From a virus, in UHGV virus genome UHGV-0042152: a stretch of DNA of 27,733 bases; one strand, given 5' to 3'. Below the pieces are notes generated by a model. It worked only from the letters and a program-made list of their open reading frames with translations. It ran no database searches and was not told where the DNA came from. Numbering within the stretch: position 1 is the stretch's first letter; every line of letters starts with the position of its first letter. This document shows positions 4,992 through 13,343 of the stretch, one piece after another. Made by a program: the position numbers and the translations under genes.

Positions 4992-5195
4992 ATGAACAAC
5001 AAGACATGGTTTCGTGCATATGCATGGGCGCTGGTATGCGTCCTCGTCTCTCTCATTCTGTATGTAGGGGTACTCCCCCGAATGATTTCATCAGACAGCT
5101 CCTTCCTGGTATTGCTGGGCATTTTCATTGCCATGCTGTACCCGGCAGGCGTTGTTCGCCTTTTCAGTAAGTACATCAAGGAAATCAAACAATGA
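4992..5195 (+). CDS. Small inner-membrane protein (67 aa, two predicted TM helices), partner of SPFH protein
   Basis: Hydrophobic segments WALVCVLVSLILYVGVL and FLVLLGIFIAMLYPAGVV. Stop overlaps the start of the downstream SPFH gene (ATGA at 5192). Confidence 0.5.
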   Translation: MNNKTWFRAYAWALVCVLVSLILYVGVLPRMISSDSSFLVLLGIFIAMLYPAGVVRLFSKYIKEIKQ

Positions 5196-6022
5196 AGAAA
5201 TTCAGACTCTTTCAGATTCTCCCGCTTTTTGCCGCCATCCTGCTGGTTGGCTGCGATCGCGTTGAGCCAGGTAATGTGGGCATCAAAGTCAACAAGCTGG
5301 GCGACGACAAAGGCGTTGGCGAAGTGGTTGGCGTTGGCCGCTACTGGACTGGCTGGAATACCGAGGTTTACATCTTCCCGACCTTCAAACAAATGAAGAC
5401 CTACGATGACCCGTTCAGCTTCCAGATGAGTGACGGCACAACCATCGGCTATCACATCGGCGTGGCCTACAAGGTCGATCCATCCAAAGTTACCACAGTG
5501 TTTCAGACCTACCGCAAAGGCGTGGACGACATTACCGACACTGACCTGCGCCAGAAGATCGCCGACGCACTCAACCGACTGGCCAGCAAAATGACCACAG
5601 ATAAATTCATCGACGGTGGCAAGTCTGAACTGCTGGATTCAGCACTTAAAGATATTCAGGCAGAAATGACACCCATCGGCATTCAGGTAATGAGCCTCTC
5701 TTATGTCGGTAAACCGGAATACCCACCAACCGTGATCGACAGCATTAATGCCAAAGTCACAGCGAACCAGAAAACCCTGCAACGCGAACAGGAAGTAAAA
5801 CAGCGCGAAGCAGAAGCCAACATGTTGCGCGCAGAAGCTGCCGGACAGGCTGATGCCATTCGTACAAAAGCCCAGGCTGAAGCCGACGCCATTCGTTTAC
5901 GCGGTGAAGCTCTGCGCCAGAATCCCGGCGTTATGGAGCTGGAAGCGATTAACAAATGGAACGGCACGCTACCGCAATACATGACCAGTAACACCGCTGT
6001 TCCGTTTGTTCCGGTGAAGTAA
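5192..6022 (+). CDS. SPFH/band-7 (HflK/C-prohibitin-like) domain lipoprotein
   Basis: N-terminal lipoprotein signal with lipobox LLVGC. Central SPFH-like region followed by an Ala/Glu/Arg/Gln-rich coiled-coil tail (QREQEVKQREAEANMLRAEAAGQADAIRTKAQAEADAIRLRGEALRQ) typical of band-7 proteins. Confidence 0.7.
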   Translation: MKKFRLFQILPLFAAILLVGCDRVEPGNVGIKVNKLGDDKGVGEVVGVGRYWTGWNTEVYIFPTFKQMKTYDDPFSFQMSDGTTIGYHIGVAYKVDPSKVTTVFQTYRKGVDDITDTDLRQKIADALNRLASKMTTDKFIDGGKSELLDSALKDIQAEMTPIGIQVMSLSYVGKPEYPPTVIDSINAKVTANQKTLQREQEVKQREAEANMLRAEAAGQADAIRTKAQAEADAIRLRGEALRQNPGVMELEAINKWNGTLPQYMTSNTAVPFVPVK

Positions 6023-7064: not shown

Positions 7065-9887
7065 ATGACGGCAGAGTACATCAGGGACTGGCAACAACCG
7101 CGCCACGCAGTGGGTCGTGAAGGAACGGGAATCCCCGCTCCTGAATCCGAGCTTTCCTCCTGGCTGGATGCCTACCGGGCAGAGAACGAGCGCCGCCAGG
7201 AAATGGCTGATGCGGCGTTCTCCGCCACGCCGCTGGGCAACCTGATTAATAAAAGCCTGGACGCACAGGAAAAACAGGACAAAACCATCACACTGGCCAG
7301 AGAAGCCAGAAAACAGGCACGTGGCGCGGTGGATGAAGCCATGGCCTCGCTGCGCCTGCTGCCGTCCTATCTGCGCGATCCGCTTATTCGCCACCTCTCC
7401 TTCCTGCGCAAAAAACAGGAAGCCGATCGCCGGAAAGGCAAAAAGAGCTGGCAGGCGGAACGCTATGCACGCGGAACCCTGCGCAAAATATTCGAACGTC
7501 TGGATCGCACTGACGGACACTGGCTGACACCGGGTTATCGCTCCCTTGCCGGACGCGAACGCCTGGACGATTTGCTTTACCTGCCGCAGCTCAACAAACA
7601 CCAGATACAGACGCTGGCCACCATGACGGCGGCGATGTTCAGCAGCACCTTCGAAAAACTCTGTGATGGCTTTGGTGCCAGAGATGGCGAGCTGACCATG
7701 GATGTAACGCTGAAGGCGTATCAGATGCTGGCCCGCATGGCGTTACACCTGCACATCATGCCTCCACATTATGACGCACTGACAACAGATAAAGACCGGA
7801 GGAACGAACCGGACACGGAGCTGCTGCCGGGCGCAGTCCTTCGCCTGACCTGTGCGGAATGGTGGAAACGCAAACTGTGGCTGTTACGTTGCGAGTGGAG
7901 AGAAGAACAACTCCGCGCCGCCTGTCTGGTTTCCAGAAAAACATCACCCTATCTGAGCCAGGACGCGTTAAGCGAGTTTCGCGCACAGCGCGAGAAAACA
8001 CGCGATTTCCTGAAAAGTTTCATGCTGGAAAACGAAGACGGGTTCACGATTGATCTCGAGACAGTGTATTACGCGGGAGTAAGTAACCCGGTTCACCGTA
8101 AGGCAGAAATGATGGCCACCATGAAGGGGCTGGAACTTCTGGCCGAAGCCCGTGGCGACAAAGCGGTGTTTCTGACTGTCACCTGCCCGTCAAAATACCA
8201 CGCCACAACAGAGAACGGTCATCCGAATCCCAAATGGAACGGGGCCACCATGCGCGACTCCAGCGATTACCTGGTTAACACGTTTTTTGCGGCGGTCCGC
8301 AAAAAACTGAACCGCGACGGTCTTCGCTGGTATGGCATCCGCACGGTGGAGCCTCACCATGACGGCACCGTGCACTGGCATATGATGGTCTTTGCTCATC
8401 CGGAAGAAATCGACAGCATCGTGGCCATCACCCGCGATATTGCCATTCAGGAAGACCGCCACGAGCTGGGCAATGATATTACTCCGCGCTTTAAGGCGGA
8501 GTATGTCGACGGCTCAAAAGGCACACCAACCAGCTATATCGCGACCTACATCGGAAAGAACCTGGACAGCCGCGCCGTGGATGGCATCGACCCGAAAACG
8601 GGCAAGCCACGCGTTGACCACGAAACCGGAAAATCAATGGCCGAGAGTGTGGAGCGCGCCATCGGCTGGGCGCGCCTTCATCGGGTCCGCCAGTTCCAGT
8701 TCTTTGGCATCCCCCCCCGTCAGGTGTGGCGTGAACTGCGCCGCCTTGCCAGCCAGATGGCACGCAACCCGGAAGGCCCGCAACGACTGAAAGATGACGC
8801 AATGGATGCGGTACTCGCTGCCGCCGATGCCGGGTGTTTTGCCACCTACATTGAAAAACAGGGCGGCGTACTTGTTCCACGCAAAGACTACCTGATTCGC
8901 ACCGCCTACGACCTCGCAGATGAGCTGAATGATTACGGCGAACAGAGCGTACAGATTTACGGGATCTGGTCACCACTCATCGGGGAATCCTCCCGTGTGT
9001 GCACGCATCCGGATAACTGGAAACTGGTAAGACGTAAACCGGAAACGGAAGACAGCGCCCGCGAAAATGGTTTTGACCTTCAGGGCGGCCCTGCCGCCCC
9101 TTGGACTCGTGGCAATAACTGTCCCCGTGTACAGGAAACGGACAACAACGGGACAGAACAGCCGGAAGAACGGCCAGCACCGTGGCCGCAGCTTCCTGAC
9201 GGCGTTGACGTGAACGAATGGATGCGCTCACTGAAACGGCACGAACGCCGGGCGCTGATGCGTTCGCTGCGTGACAAACAGGCAAAAAACAGCAGTGATG
9301 AAATGCAGAGCTGGACACAGAGCCGCAAACAGCAGCGGCCTTTGCCTGATAACCACGAATTACTCGCTAAAGAATGGCGGGAATCTGCCGAATCTCTCGG
9401 CCTGCATATCGGTGAACAGCAGATGCAGCACCTGTTACGGGGCGGCAGCCTGTACGTTGACGGCAGCATCATTGCACCGCAGGGATTTGAAATTGTACGC
9501 AAACCGGATACCCGCCCGGACAGCCGAATCACGCAGCTCTGGCAGCGCCTGAGCCGTAATCACGGCGTAAGCAGCACGGAGATCCGCCATAACCCGGTCG
9601 CCAGCTATCTGGAACAGCTGGGGGCATCAGACCCCGAAGCCGCCGCACGTCTGGCATCCACACTTCAGCAGGACCAGAACACCATGACCCCCCCCGTTAC
9701 CGTGCTTTCTGACATGCTGCGCGCCATCCGCGACGCAGAGCACGCACAGAGAATCAGTGAAACCACTGAACGTGCCCGCCGCAAAGCAGACCTGCTGCGG
9801 GGTGGCCTGACCAGTGGAAACAAAAAACAGACAGAAACGGGATTCACAAATCCCGTAAATGAGCAAAAAACGCGCCGCGATATATGA
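7065..9887 (+). CDS. A: Replication initiation protein gpA (rolling-circle HUH endonuclease)
   Basis: Central region matches P2 gpA (VFLTVTCPSKYH..., VEPHHDGTVHWHMMVF HUH motif, YIATYIGKNLD catalytic-Tyr region). 940 aa versus 761 aa in P2, so the ends are diverged or extended. Confidence 0.9.
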   Translation: MTAEYIRDWQQPRHAVGREGTGIPAPESELSSWLDAYRAENERRQEMADAAFSATPLGNLINKSLDAQEKQDKTITLAREARKQARGAVDEAMASLRLLPSYLRDPLIRHLSFLRKKQEADRRKGKKSWQAERYARGTLRKIFERLDRTDGHWLTPGYRSLAGRERLDDLLYLPQLNKHQIQTLATMTAAMFSSTFEKLCDGFGARDGELTMDVTLKAYQMLARMALHLHIMPPHYDALTTDKDRRNEPDTELLPGAVLRLTCAEWWKRKLWLLRCEWREEQLRAACLVSRKTSPYLSQDALSEFRAQREKTRDFLKSFMLENEDGFTIDLETVYYAGVSNPVHRKAEMMATMKGLELLAEARGDKAVFLTVTCPSKYHATTENGHPNPKWNGATMRDSSDYLVNTFFAAVRKKLNRDGLRWYGIRTVEPHHDGTVHWHMMVFAHPEEIDSIVAITRDIAIQEDRHELGNDITPRFKAEYVDGSKGTPTSYIATYIGKNLDSRAVDGIDPKTGKPRVDHETGKSMAESVERAIGWARLHRVRQFQFFGIPPRQVWRELRRLASQMARNPEGPQRLKDDAMDAVLAAADAGCFATYIEKQGGVLVPRKDYLIRTAYDLADELNDYGEQSVQIYGIWSPLIGESSRVCTHPDNWKLVRRKPETEDSARENGFDLQGGPAAPWTRGNNCPRVQETDNNGTEQPEERPAPWPQLPDGVDVNEWMRSLKRHERRALMRSLRDKQAKNSSDEMQSWTQSRKQQRPLPDNHELLAKEWRESAESLGLHIGEQQMQHLLRGGSLYVDGSIIAPQGFEIVRKPDTRPDSRITQLWQRLSRNHGVSSTEIRHNPVASYLEQLGASDPEAAARLASTLQQDQNTMTPPVTVLSDMLRAIRDAEHAQRISETTERARRKADLLRGGLTSGNKKQTETGFTNPVNEQKTRRDI

Positions 9888-9933
9888 AGCGCACACAAAA
9901 CAGGCAAAAACGGGATTTCAGAATCCCGTAAAC
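9821..9933. repeat. Two ~40-bp imperfect direct repeats, each with an ACGGGATT-N4-AATCCCGT palindrome
   Basis: Copy 1 at 9821-9860 lies inside the last codons of gpA; copy 2 at 9893-9933 lies in the gpA-parM intergenic region. Palindrome cores at 9837-9856 and 9910-9929. Confidence 0.55.
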
Positions 9934-9963
9934 GATTAATTAATCAACATAAGGAAAAGCGAC

Positions 9964-10923
9964 ATGAAAATTTGTATCGACGACGGCTCCACCAACATCA
10001 AGCTGGCATGGACTGAGAATGGCGAACGCCGCAACGCCATCAGCCCGAACAGCTTCAAGTCGGAATGGTCTGCGCCGTTCGGTGGCATGCAGCCCGCGAA
10101 CTACATGCTTGATGGCGTGCGCTATGGTTTTGATCCGGTTAGCGATCGCTTTGTCCAGACGACCGACACGCAATACCAGTACAGCGATGTGAATGTAATC
10201 GCCATTCATCACGCGCTGGTCAAATCAGGCATCACGCCACAGGAGGTGGATGTGGTTGTCACCCTGCCACTGAGCGAGTATTTCGACACAAACGCACAGC
10301 CGGACATGGCCAACATCAACCGCAAAAAAGCGAACGTTATGCGCCCGGTGGAGTACCAGAACGGCGAAGCATTCACTATCCGTAACGTGCGGGTTATGCC
10401 TGAATCCATTCCGGCTGGCTTTAAGGCACTGGCTGACATGAGTCCGTTTGAATCCCTGCTGATTGTGGATTTAGGCGGAACCACGCTGGATGTGGCAAAG
10501 GTTCAGGGACAACTGGCAGGTATCAGCCAGGTGCTTTGCGATCCACACGTAGGCGTTTCCCTGATGGCCGATGCCGTACTGTCGGTGATGGCCACTAACG
10601 GTATGCGTACCAGTCACCACATCGCCAATACCATTATCGAACATCGCCATGATGAAGCCTGGCTGCGCCAGCACATCCACAATGACGCGCATTACGCCAG
10701 CCTGATGGCGGTTATTCGTGAAAAGGAAGAAACACTGAAACAACGCGTGATCCGCGCGCTGGCGGGTTTTTCGGGTTACGGGCGGGTGATGGTTGTCGGT
10801 GGCGGGGCAGAGATTGTGGCACCCGCTATCCGCGAAGCCTGCGGAGTTAATGCGACTTTCATCGCGGACGGGGTGCCACAGTTTGCTCTGGTTAATGGGC
10901 TGTACGCAATGGACAAGGAGTAA
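9964..10923 (+). CDS. parM: ParM/StbA-family actin-like segregation ATPase
   Basis: Strong similarity along the whole protein to plasmid R1 ParM as recalled (IDDGSTNIKL, ISPNSFK-EW, QYSDVNV-A-HHAL, VMPESIPAG, DLGGTTLD, GVSL, GGGAE, LVNG-Y). AAGGAAAAG RBS. Confidence 0.85.
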   Translation: MKICIDDGSTNIKLAWTENGERRNAISPNSFKSEWSAPFGGMQPANYMLDGVRYGFDPVSDRFVQTTDTQYQYSDVNVIAIHHALVKSGITPQEVDVVVTLPLSEYFDTNAQPDMANINRKKANVMRPVEYQNGEAFTIRNVRVMPESIPAGFKALADMSPFESLLIVDLGGTTLDVAKVQGQLAGISQVLCDPHVGVSLMADAVLSVMATNGMRTSHHIANTIIEHRHDEAWLRQHIHNDAHYASLMAVIREKEETLKQRVIRALAGFSGYGRVMVVGGGAEIVAPAIREACGVNATFIADGVPQFALVNGLYAMDKE

Positions 10924-10927
10924 ACCA

Positions 10928-11239
10928 ATGACGACACCAACCAGACGGATAAGTTTCTATCTGAAGCCCGCCGCCGTCAAGAACGAAGGCGAAGCATGCG
11001 CCTGGCTGGACAGCCTTACACCAGAAGCCCGCAAAAGTGGTCAACGCGTGGCTTTTCTGGCCGGGCTGGCACTACTGAAAATGAATCCGGCAGAGGCTTA
11101 CCGACTGGCTGCATGGGCTGATGATGAGGCGTTATCAATGACACAAACCAGGACAGAACGCCCCGCGTCACAGCCAGTATCAGCCGCACAGATAACCAGT
11201 CAGATGGCCGGAAATATCCGGGCGTTATTTCCCGAATAA
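10928..11239 (+). CDS. parR: ParR-like adaptor/centromere-binding protein (putative)
   Basis: Directly downstream of parM with an AAGGAG RBS. N-terminal region (RRISFYLKP...RVAFLAGLALLKMNP) resembles the R1 ParR N-terminus as recalled. Size is appropriate. Confidence 0.55.
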   Translation: MTTPTRRISFYLKPAAVKNEGEACAWLDSLTPEARKSGQRVAFLAGLALLKMNPAEAYRLAAWADDEALSMTQTRTERPASQPVSAAQITSQMAGNIRALFPE

Positions 11240-11244
11240 CACAA

Positions 11245-11268
11245 CATCAGGGCGCATCCGCCCTGATG
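11245..11268 (+). other. Perfect 10-bp-arm palindrome (CATCAGGGCG-CATC-CGCCCTGATG) just after the parR stop
   Basis: Read directly in the sequence. No U-tract follows, so more likely a protein-binding or RNA-processing site than an intrinsic terminator. Confidence 0.4.
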
Positions 11269-11302: not shown

Positions 11303-11635
11303 ATGCAACACATTGACAGAGAAAAAGCGCAGCGACTGATTGAGCGGATGGAAGCGCTGGCGAAAGAAGAAAATGTCAACATCCAAAAAATAGCTGAATG
11401 TGGCCAGATAGTTCTTCGTCGTGAAAAAGACCTCAAACAACTGATGTCTGGCGAAACCAGCAAAACATGGACTTCAGGCGAGAAGACGGTTTATTGCAGC
11501 TTCTGCAATAAATCCCAGTACGAAGTCACAAAGGTGATTGCCGGACCGTCTGTTTACATCTGCAATGAGTGCGTGGATTTGTGCAATGAAATTATCAGGA
11601 AAGAAGTGACAGACAAAAAGGAAAAAAACGCATGA
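11303..11635 (+). CDS. Stand-alone ClpX-type C4 zinc-binding domain protein (110 aa)
   Basis: C-terminal half [38 protein letters not shown] is near-identical in pattern to the N-terminal zinc-binding domain of ClpX (C-x2-C...C-x2-C). No AAA+ module follows. The N-terminal ~55 aa are coiled-coil-like. AGGGGGA RBS. Confidence 0.7.
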
Positions 11636-12653: not shown

Positions 12654-12686
12654 GGACCCAGCAAATATACACAACCTATAAAACAC

Positions 12687-12714
12687 TAAAGCGCCTCAGG
12701 GGCGCTTTTTGTTT
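12687..12714 (+). terminator. Rho-independent terminator ending the parM-to-small-ORF operon
   Basis: AAGCGCC-TCAG-GGGCGCTT hairpin followed by TTTTTGTTT. Confidence 0.65.
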
Positions 12715-12817
12715 GCACAAAAGTGCACAAATTTGCACAATTTTTTTGAACGACTTTTTACCCTTCCGGCCCGCATGGCGGCTGGATCCGTCAAGGATCC
12801 GTGCGTGCACAAAAAAA
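12711..12817. promoter_or_regulatory. Repeat-rich non-coding region (phased TGCACAA repeats and duplicated GGATCCGT)
   Basis: TGCACAA at 12714, 12724, 12734 (10-bp phasing) and again at 12807. GGATCCGT at 12784 and 12795 (11-bp spacing). Function unknown. Confidence 0.35.
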
Positions 12818-13104
12818 CGCGCTTTTTCTGCGCGCAGGTGACGGGGGAACAGCCCGCGTTTCAGGGGGTAAATAGCATTCCCTGAACGATGTCGCAGAGA
12901 CACAACAGAATGGCCATATTTCTCACGCTGAGCATGAAAAAGGCGTGAGGGCTTTTGATTTGATGGGGTGAAAGGTAAGGCCGTCAAAATCGCACTGAGG
13001 CAGCGAGAACATGCAGTCAACGCGGTGGAATTGCGTAAGAGTCTGACCGTCGATGGTGGCGATAAACTGGAAGGCGTCGTGAAATTATCTGATTGATACA
13101 GGAG

Positions 13105-13236
13105 NNNNNNNNNNNNNNNNNNNNNNNNNNNNNNNNNNNNNNNNNNNNNNNNNNNNNNNNNNNNNNNNNNNNNNNNNNNNNNNNNNNNNNNNNNNNNNNN
13201 NNNNNNNNNNNNNNNNNNNNNNNNNNNNNNNNNNNN
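13105..13236. other. Run of N (masked or unsequenced, 132 nt)
   Basis: Literal n characters in the sequence. Confidence 1.
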
Positions 13237-13343
13237 GGCGGGGCGAAGCAGCAGACAAGCGAAGCGCGTCAGCGATACGGCACCTTGCCGACCATACTTC
13301 ATAAGTGCAAAATACGAGCAAAGAAATCAATGGAGGCTGTCTT

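Follow-up and report, generated by a model that had tools for sequence, protein, structure and literature searches.

The 116-bp segment at positions 9820–9935 is probably parC, the centromere and probably also the operator of a type II (ParMRC) partition system carried by a prophage. It lies in a 27,733-nucleotide stretch of viral DNA (the window), an E. coli prophage of the P2 family that is P88-like (Xuanwuvirus) and has parM followed by an RHH-type parR. A sequence-only reading of this DNA had suggested ParR centromere or operator sites as one possibility for two repeats found here. This is the reading that we favor, because the element travels with parMR, covaries with the type of ParR, keeps a spacing of 72–73 bp, and has phased A-tracts. 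We regard the repeats as the probable parC of an R1-type ParM/ParR system, with gpA simply reading into the first of them, and thus as an uncharacterized example of a well-known system. A literature search for the P88 par locus or for parC assays on P88-like phages found no study.

Position and structure of the repeats

Two imperfect direct repeats of about 40 bp with palindromes had been described, 73 bp apart, one of them forming the last codons of gpA and the other just upstream of parM. This description was borne out by a repeat finder and by the ORF coordinates (Table 1). The repeat finder returned one family only, a pair of 43-nt repeats that are 81% identical and 73 bp apart from start to start, each copy with one inverted repeat. 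Repeat 1 covers codons ~919–933 of the 940 in gpA. Both inverted repeats are perfect 8+4+8 palindromes: ACGGGATT-CACA-AATCCCGT at 9837–9856 in repeat 1, and ACGGGATT-TCAG-AATCCCGT at 9910–9929 in repeat 2. When up to three mismatches were allowed, these two were the only matches to the palindrome in the 27.7-kb window (0.10 expected), and none of 100 shuffles reached two or more matches. The core that is conserved by comparison is GGG-N10-CCC (9839–9854 and 9912–9927), which is narrower than the full 8-bp arms.

Dispersed REP/BIME-like palindromes were considered and rejected, with two copies only in the window and one prophage context in the loci listed. The E. coli genomes that have the junction carry a median of one copy of it, and the context was a P2-like prophage at all the loci listed.

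Table 1. Coordinates of the element and of the genes around it in the window
Feature	Position	Strand	Evidence or remark
gpA, rolling-circle replication initiator, 940 aa	7065–9887	+	Phage_GPA, E = 2.5e-131
Last 21 codons of gpA and stop (KQTETGFTNPVNEQKTRRDI)	9822–9887	+	the upstream ORF reads through into the par module
Repeat 1, putative parC arm 1	9820–9862	.	repeat and palindrome; within the last gpA codons
30-bp spacer between the repeats	9863–9892	+	holds the gpA stop TGA (9885–9887); any function putative
Repeat 2, putative parC arm 2	9893–9935	.	intergenic; ends 29 nt before the parM ATG (9964)
GATTAATTAATC	9934–9945	+	candidate −10 region
parM, actin-like segregation ATPase, 319 aa	9964–10923	+	StbA_N, E = 2.7e-82; ParM C-terminal domain, E = 2.8e-68
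parR, predicted RHH centromere-binding adaptor, 103 aa	10928–11239	+	PF10784, E = 6e-24

The gene names gpA, parM, and parR in the sequence-only reading were correct, as judged by the Pfam matches (Phage_GPA, StbA_N, and PF10784). ParR has the N-terminal strand TRRISFYLKP and the C-terminal tail NIRALFPE. Both are conserved, and they were kept in all 21 of the aligned ParR variants, which are 43–90% identical to the ParR of the window. A PDB search with the single ParR sequence found nothing and a profile was required for a match; the ParR profile matched pB171 ParR (2JD3) with an E-value of 2.8e-16.

The A-tracts of the element are strongly phased. The AA periodicity at 10.5 bp had a power of 2.03, higher than in any of the other 2,735 windows of the sequence (maximum 1.16), and the same measure gave 3.49 for the R1-type parC. 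Phasing of this kind, as in R1 parC, suggests that the DNA is curved. Scans for consensus sigma-70 promoters called none in any of the four lineages scanned, and therefore the operator role stays putative. A weak promoter-like pair can be read by eye at the spacer, with ATGAGC at 9859–9864 and TATATG at 9881–9886 (TATAAG in Hafnia), and it was not called by the scan. The spacer sequence is replaced by another one in L021, L054, L060, and L080. An alignment of four diverged lineages shows ATTAAT at 9939–9944 to be invariant. This hexamer is a candidate for the −10 of a par promoter, the −35 of which would overlap site 2. Expression of parMR could come from read-through of the early operon.

Linkage to parMR and conservation across lineages

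The loci of relatives were gathered by a genome scan with ParM alignment, and in these loci the element goes with parMR and not with gpA. In L055 the nucleotide homology to the window starts at the left boundary of repeat 1. L137 has parMR swapped out just past the gpA stop. In L055, L099, and L103, gpA is not adjacent to the element, and further ORFs lie between the two. Depending on the lineage, the gpA stop is located before palindrome 1 (L097), inside it (in the loop in Hafnia), or after it, and the DNA itself is kept. Moreover, an unrelated 155-aa ORF of L055 ends with the same 21-codon tail as gpA. This ORF has no relation to a 167-aa ORF of L099, and neither of the two had a Pfam match. 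The overlap of gpA with the element is incidental: any upstream ORF reads in until the next stop codon. Up to residue ~919, gpA is ordinary gpA sequence, which is conserved at 62% in Hafnia and at 88% in L097. The repeat had been proposed to explain the long and divergent C-terminus of gpA; this proposal was wrong, since only the last 21 codons are par-module read-through. In terms of annotation, these codons are regulatory DNA that the 940-aa gpA ORF reads into, and they form no protein domain.

The element is selectively conserved. Between the window and Hafnia L013, repeat 1 is 81% and repeat 2 is 84% identical, against 53–57% for the adjacent gpA DNA and 47–69% for third-codon positions, and the identity to this relative rises from ~55% to 81–84% at the left edge of repeat 1. 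Across three diverged lineages (ParM 62% identical, gpA 33–60%), only the two GGG-N10-CCC sites are kept, 72–73 bp apart. In Hafnia L099 and Plesiomonas L101 (ParM 62% identical; gpA 33% and 55%, respectively), the two sites are spaced by 73 and 72 bp, and they lie at about the same distance from the parM ATG as in the window. The inner bases of the sites differ.

The element also covaries with the type of ParR. The GGG-N10-CCC pair was present in 7 of 7 loci with the ParR strand TRR[IV]SFYL[KN]P. Loci whose ParR has another strand lacked the pair (about 30 loci, some of them P2-like prophages with RKISFYLKP). The seven loci amount to about three independent lineages, as the three GGG-N10-CCC lineages share ancestry. 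The L003 and L004 prophages (ParR 52% identical) were rejected as a test of covariation, because their ParR diverges only past residue ~24, which leaves the DNA-reading strand as it is in the window.

Variation among close relatives argues against the centromere reading. In 56 close E. coli variants, the palindrome arms are as polymorphic as their neighbors and only the loops are clearly freer. Some prophages have degraded second sites (for example, Cronobacter L017).

Alternative explanations of the repeats

Two alternatives would place the function in RNA. The repeats might be tandem intrinsic terminators on the minus strand that keep late or antisense transcripts out of gene A, which we consider very unlikely. 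The scan flagged both minus-strand 8-bp hairpins (about −10 to −12 kcal/mol) with a T-rich run, in L013 as well as in the window, and the substitutions in palindrome 1 are mostly G.U-compatible on the minus strand (7 types vs. 1). However, no minus-strand gene ends nearby; the nearest one is at 12676–13302, and a stronger hairpin (11245–11268) lies in between. The T-run past palindrome 1 is broken after two T's, the minus-strand pairing is disrupted by palindrome-2 variants that are common (GCGGGATT..AATCCTGT, in at least 16 of the 89 loci), and compensatory changes are absent. Furthermore, L099 and L101 keep the sites and their spacing without a terminator-like structure on either strand. It is highly improbable that the function lies instead in plus-strand hairpins of the gpA–parM transcript, acting on mRNA stability, processing, or parM translation. 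Changes on both sides were found in 0 of 16 pairs, the covariation score was no better than that of shuffles, and a frequent variant of palindrome 1 (ACGGGACT) disrupts the plus-strand pairing, although the hairpins have a folding energy of about −11 kcal/mol (z = −3.3 to −3.9) and several variants of palindrome 2 are G.U-compatible on this strand. L101 preserves the GGG/CCC triplets and their spacing even though its inner bases are not complementary. The two strands give contradictory wobble patterns, and some lineages retain the sites but have lost the hairpins. A search of the element against Rfam gave no match.

At the DNA level, a protein other than ParR might bind the sites and regulate either parMR or the early operon at its end; candidates include phage regulators such as C, Cox, and Ogr, as well as host factors. 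Inverted repeats on DNA that is phased and bent occur generally in regulation, and the link to ParR is a predicted one. Nevertheless, this explanation is quite unlikely: the element covaries with the type of ParR though other genes differ (gpA 33–60%, differing intervening ORFs), it moves with parMR in L055, and no further copy of the palindrome is present in the window, the C/Cox switch region included. To the idea that the repeats are a functionless recombination scar or module junction, or a part of the gpA replication origin, we give almost no weight. A scar had been proposed earlier, along with an alignment of the junctions in related prophages. Mosaic joints do lie at the edges of the element, at the left in L055 and at the right in L137, but the scar itself is not supported, because the sequence is under selection and is no relic. 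The repeats are conserved above neutral sites, and the spacing is kept across lineages that are 38% diverged in ParM. As for an origin, those of the P2 type sit near the 3' part of gene A. However, the best match in the window to the P2 nick site (GCGCCTC/GGAGTCCTGTCAA; 18 of 25 bases) is at 9091–9115, ~720 bp upstream of the element, at the codon position of residue 620 of P2 A, and this is where the P2-type origin maps. The ORFs that lie between gpA and the element in those three relatives (L055, L099, and L103) also speak against this explanation.

Known partition systems and the proposed centromere

R1 parC consists of two iteron sets on either side of the promoter and is strongly curved (PMC2241845). 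Similar to R1 parC, the element is directly upstream of parM and parR, and the proteins are homologous (ParM of the window is 46–52% identical to plasmid ParMs including the R1 type; ParR belongs to PF10784). Both have two repeat arms with a short stretch between them (two arms of 43 bp and a spacer of 30 bp here, two of 55 bp and one of 39 bp in R1), and the arms are an integral number of helical turns apart. Both also have strongly phased A-tracts with an A-rich coding strand. Unlike in R1, where each arm has five direct 11-bp iterons, each arm here has one inverted GGG-N10-CCC site. The recognition sequence also differs, the upstream ORF runs into the first arm, the promoter is present only as weak candidates, ParR is shorter (103 aa), and the replicon is an integrating P2-like phage instead of a low-copy plasmid. 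Since only the 43-nt pair was found, with one inverted repeat each, the element is not an R1-type array of ten direct 11-bp iterons. Two strong sites, inverted instead of direct, count against a centromere when R1 has ten iterons, and so does an integrated prophage without an obvious need for one. The parC sequences differ among all the plasmid lineages compared.

The match of the ParR profile to pB171 ParR suggests an RHH dimer with an N-terminal beta strand that reads DNA, and probably also cooperative assembly on repeated sites, as in the pSK41 ParR–centromere segrosome. Similarity to these systems is undetectable with a single sequence, and the number, orientation, and sequence of the repeats differ. 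Among P2-like prophages, those of Serratia (L102 and L108) and Enterobacter (L103) have parMR at the same place, between gpA and ogr/portal. Together with the P1-like phage-plasmid D6, they also have lineage-specific cis repeats upstream of parM. However, their ParR strand is RKISFYLKP or another one, and in place of a GGG-N10-CCC pair 73 bp apart there is either a single long inverted repeat (GGGAAC...N~50...GTTCCC) or a set of short direct iterons. A 44-kb plasmid of Apirhabdus (L132) was rejected as a P88-type system; it has another type of ParR and short TTCTCAAAT-type iterons.

For the proposed centromere, the comparisons show that the element exists, that it is linked to parMR, that it is selectively conserved, that it covaries with the type of ParR, and that it is phased. 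We infer that ParR binds it, in what stoichiometry, and that it acts in repression and segregation, as follows. RHH dimers of ParR would read the inverted GGG/CCC half-sites in each repeat. The sites are 73 bp apart on bent, A-tract-phased DNA, which is about seven helical turns, and thus both would face one side of the DNA. ParR would spread cooperatively across each 43-bp arm to form the partition complex. The conserved C-terminal tail of ParR may let this complex capture the ends of ParM filaments, and the filaments would push sister phage circles apart. ParR on the same sites might also repress the par promoter, located between or just after them.

A bolder proposal, which we consider doubtful, is that P88-like and related P2-family phages carry a functional and unusually compact two-site ParMRC centromere that actively segregates the non-integrated circular genome. 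If true, it would mean that these P2-like phages can exist facultatively as a plasmid or in a carrier state, or that they have a means of distributing replicating circles, and recognition of the centromere would rely on inverted GGG/CCC half-sites and not on an iteron array. To our knowledge, this phage family is thought to depend on integration alone. Confirmation would define the ParMRC centromere of an integrating P2-like phage. It would also provide a minimal design, two GGG-N10-CCC sites at a distance of seven helical turns, for comparison with the ten-iteron paradigm of R1. The proposal raises the question of what use an actin-like segregation machine is to an integrating phage, and the exact DNA and protein residues for testing are now defined. 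The prophage junction was found in 1,304 of 5,426 complete E. coli genomes, about a quarter of them.

Repeats, genes and prophage setting

The repeat finder gave one 43-nt direct-repeat family in the window, with two copies that start 73 nt apart and share 81% identity, and each copy contains a perfect 8+4+8 palindrome. The sequence-only reading had described such a pair of palindrome-bearing repeats, one at the end of gpA and the other just upstream of parM, and both the pair and its placement were borne out, the latter by the ORF coordinates. When ACGGGATT-N4-AATCCCGT was searched with up to three mismatches, the two repeats were the only matches in 27.7 kb (0.10 expected; no shuffle reached two).

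Features of the window, with nucleotide identity to the related Hafnia locus L013
Feature	Coordinates	Strand	Description	Identity to L013
SPFH/Band-7 family protein	5192-6022	+	early region; E=1e-30	
gpA ORF	7065-9887	+	940 aa; Phage_GPA domain, E=2.5e-131	47% (third-codon positions); 53-57% (DNA adjoining repeats)
P2 nick-region homologue	9091-9115	+	CTGCCGCCCCTTGGACTCGTGGCAA	
Repeat 1	9820-9862		within last gpA codons	81%
Palindrome 1	9837-9856		8+4+8, in repeat 1	
Repeat 2	9893-9935		intergenic; ends 29 nt 5' of parM ATG	84%
Palindrome 2	9910-9929		8+4+8, in repeat 2	
parM	ATG at 9964	+	next gene after gpA; full-length; StbA_N, E=2.7e-82	69% (third-codon positions)
parR	10928-11239	+	next after parM; 103-aa PF10784 "plasmid stability" protein	60% (third-codon positions)
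Hairpin	11245-11268		directly 3' of parR	
Small ORF	11303-11635	+	3' of parR; ClpX-type C4 zinc finger, E=7e-18	

Other genes in the window specify an integrase, a C-like repressor, Cox, a portal protein and a terminase. Its identity to phage P88 and further Xuanwuvirus members (Peduoviridae) is 95-99%. The gpA-parM junction was found in 1,304 of 5,426 complete E. coli genomes, at 1,441 places on chromosomes and two on plasmids. A literature search found no published analysis of the P88-type par locus. One circular record deposited as an E. coli 'plasmid' (NZ_CP148288.1, 34,461 bp) comprises an entire P88-like phage genome that includes gpA-parM-parR; the circle may be a true episome or induced phage DNA that was assembled. 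Large plasmids such as the IncC plasmid pC-Ec2-KPC (L004) also house P88-like prophages. A P88-like prophage on a contig labelled Vagococcus sp. (Firmicutes; NZ_JBQPOM010000071.1) encodes a ParM 97% identical to that of E. coli, and this assembly is probably contaminated or mislabelled.

Junctions between gpA and parMR

Among 59 distinct junctions aligned from 89 sequences (the window and related loci), four cases were decisive. L055 has a gpA of 871 aa and then a distinct ORF of 155 aa whose similarity to the window's gpA is limited to the last 21 codons (EKQTKTGFTNPVNEQKTRSDI*), and nucleotide homology with the window starts at the left end of repeat 1. In L097 the gpA stop (TAA) is immediately 5' of palindrome 1, in Hafnia L013 (gpA 62% identical) a TGA lies in the palindrome 1 loop, and in the P88 type the stop is 29 nt 3' of palindrome 1. 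Across these four cases, therefore, the DNA is kept while the overlying frame is not. As judged from these alignments, the repeat element is part of parMR and not of gpA; the last 21 codons of gpA are read-through, and the remainder of its long C-terminus is genuine gpA sequence. Thus, the earlier suggestion that the junction explains the long and divergent C-terminus fails.

In a rare variant (L137, NZ_CP115358.1, 3501-3660), a frameshifted ead/Ea22-like gene replaces parMR and repeat 2. The replacement starts directly after the gpA stop and repeat 1 is orphaned with gpA, so mosaic joints occur to either side of the element. The junction was not fully covered in at most six of the 1,304 E. 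coli genomes. In an IMG/VR contig (L051, 3501-4880), the ParM match is 1,380 nt rather than 957, indicating a ~420 bp insertion within parM.

Conservation and covariation with ParR

Relative to Hafnia L013, both repeats (81% and 84%) are better conserved than the adjoining gpA DNA (53-57%) and than third-codon positions in gpA, parR and parM (47-69%), in line with selection on the repeats. Close E. coli variants showed no special conservation of the palindrome arms, and the loops were most variable; the invariant positions were the inner G's and C's. Searches with ParM located intermediate systems in further P2-like prophages. Hafnia L099 (ParM 62% and gpA 33% identical to the window's; ParR of 129 aa) carries GGGATTGAGGAAACCC and GGGTTCATTAAATCCC at a spacing of exactly 73 bp, while Plesiomonas L101 (ParM 62%, gpA 55%) carries GGGACAACAAAAACCC and GGGACAACACTAACCC at 72 bp, and in both the distance from site to ATG is nearly equal to that in the window. 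These sites indicate that the conserved feature is GGG-N10-CCC, present twice and seven helical turns apart, with the inner bases free. In a comparison of 37 loci, drawn from species-representative genomes and elsewhere, the pair was present in all seven whose ParR starts TRR[IV]SFYL[KN]P (about three independent lineages) and absent at ~30 with other ParR strands, including three RKISFYLKP P2-like prophages. The three RKISFYLKP prophages (L102, L103 and L108, from Serratia/Enterobacter) have a different layout 5' of parM, one long inverted repeat GGGAAC.A.ATAGAAAAAT ... ATTTTTCT.TTTCGTTCCC spanning ~66 bp. AACAGGCAAAAACGGGA is common to L102 and the window's repeat 2.

All 21 aligned ParR variants, which share 43-90% identity with that of the window, retain the N-terminal strand and end in the NIRALFPE tail; the linker alone varies. 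A profile built from these variants matches the solved RHH protein pB171 ParR (2JD3, E=2.8e-16). ParR is mosaic: about 24 N-terminal residues and the last eight are near-invariant, the middle and linker are hypervariable, and overall identity falls to 43%. L003 and L004 (4001-4315) have a recombination joint inside parR, yet their ParM is 98% identical.

Centromere reading and its alternatives

Linkage to parMR and covariation with the ParR strand favour the proposal of a ParR centromere or operator, and the repeats most likely serve as centromere (parC) and operator in a ParMRC system carried by the phage, where ParR would bind, repress and act in segregation. ParMRC is already known as a kind; the present system is a new example of it, not characterised before, with a compact layout of two sites. 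Binding of the repeats by another protein is a less likely alternative, which would leave the covariation with ParR unexplained. On the minus strand both palindromes resemble terminators, and most palindrome 1 substitutions would allow wobble pairing in that orientation. However, no minus-strand gene ends nearby in the window, common palindrome 2 variants break the pairing, compensatory change was seen in 0 of 16 pairs, and the sites persist in L099 and L101, which have neither a hairpin nor a terminator there. Plus-strand RNA hairpins fail the same tests, and an Rfam search gave no match. Among 89 relatives, nearly all palindrome 1 substitutions, read on the plus strand, are T->C or G->A (seven types versus one of the opposite kind), compatible with wobble on the minus strand only. 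This skew, which palindrome 2 did not show, may come from biased mutation or from a secondary role of the minus strand. As for an origin of the P2 type, the nick site is located within gene A in the P2 record, and the window's best homologue lies inside gpA. It agrees with the nick region of the P2 ori (TCGCCGCGCCTC|GGAGTCCTGTCAA) in 18/25 bases, and its codon position corresponds to residue 620 of P2 A. This homologue is probably the origin and nick site of the phage.

R1 parC has two sets of five 11-bp iterons, with 39 bp between them holding the promoter, and is strongly curved (PMC2241845). In the R1-type locus compared here the iterons are phased and rich in A/C, while each of the other plasmid lineages has its own short repeats flanking the promoter region on both sides. 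The window segment is similarly arranged as two 43-bp arms with a 30-bp spacer, but each arm has one inverted-repeat site instead of five direct iterons. A accounts for 45% of the segment's coding strand, and AA periodicity in the segment is strongest at 10.5 bp, where its power is 2.03, above all 2,735 other windows (maximum 1.16) and below R1-type parC (3.49). Unlike R1, it has no recognisable promoter, as scans of the window and related lineages found no consensus. Weak candidates are ATGAGC-N16-TATATG in the spacer and ATTAAT at 9939-9944, which is invariant in four lineages and whose -35 would overlap site 2. The 10-bp GC-rich hairpin CATCAGGGCG..CGCCCTGATG after parR is strong and terminator-like, and probably ends the par operon. 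The P88 record annotates the zinc-finger ORF inconsistently as 'carboxylate-amine ligase', and labels the SPFH/Band-7 protein a lipoprotein or serine protease.
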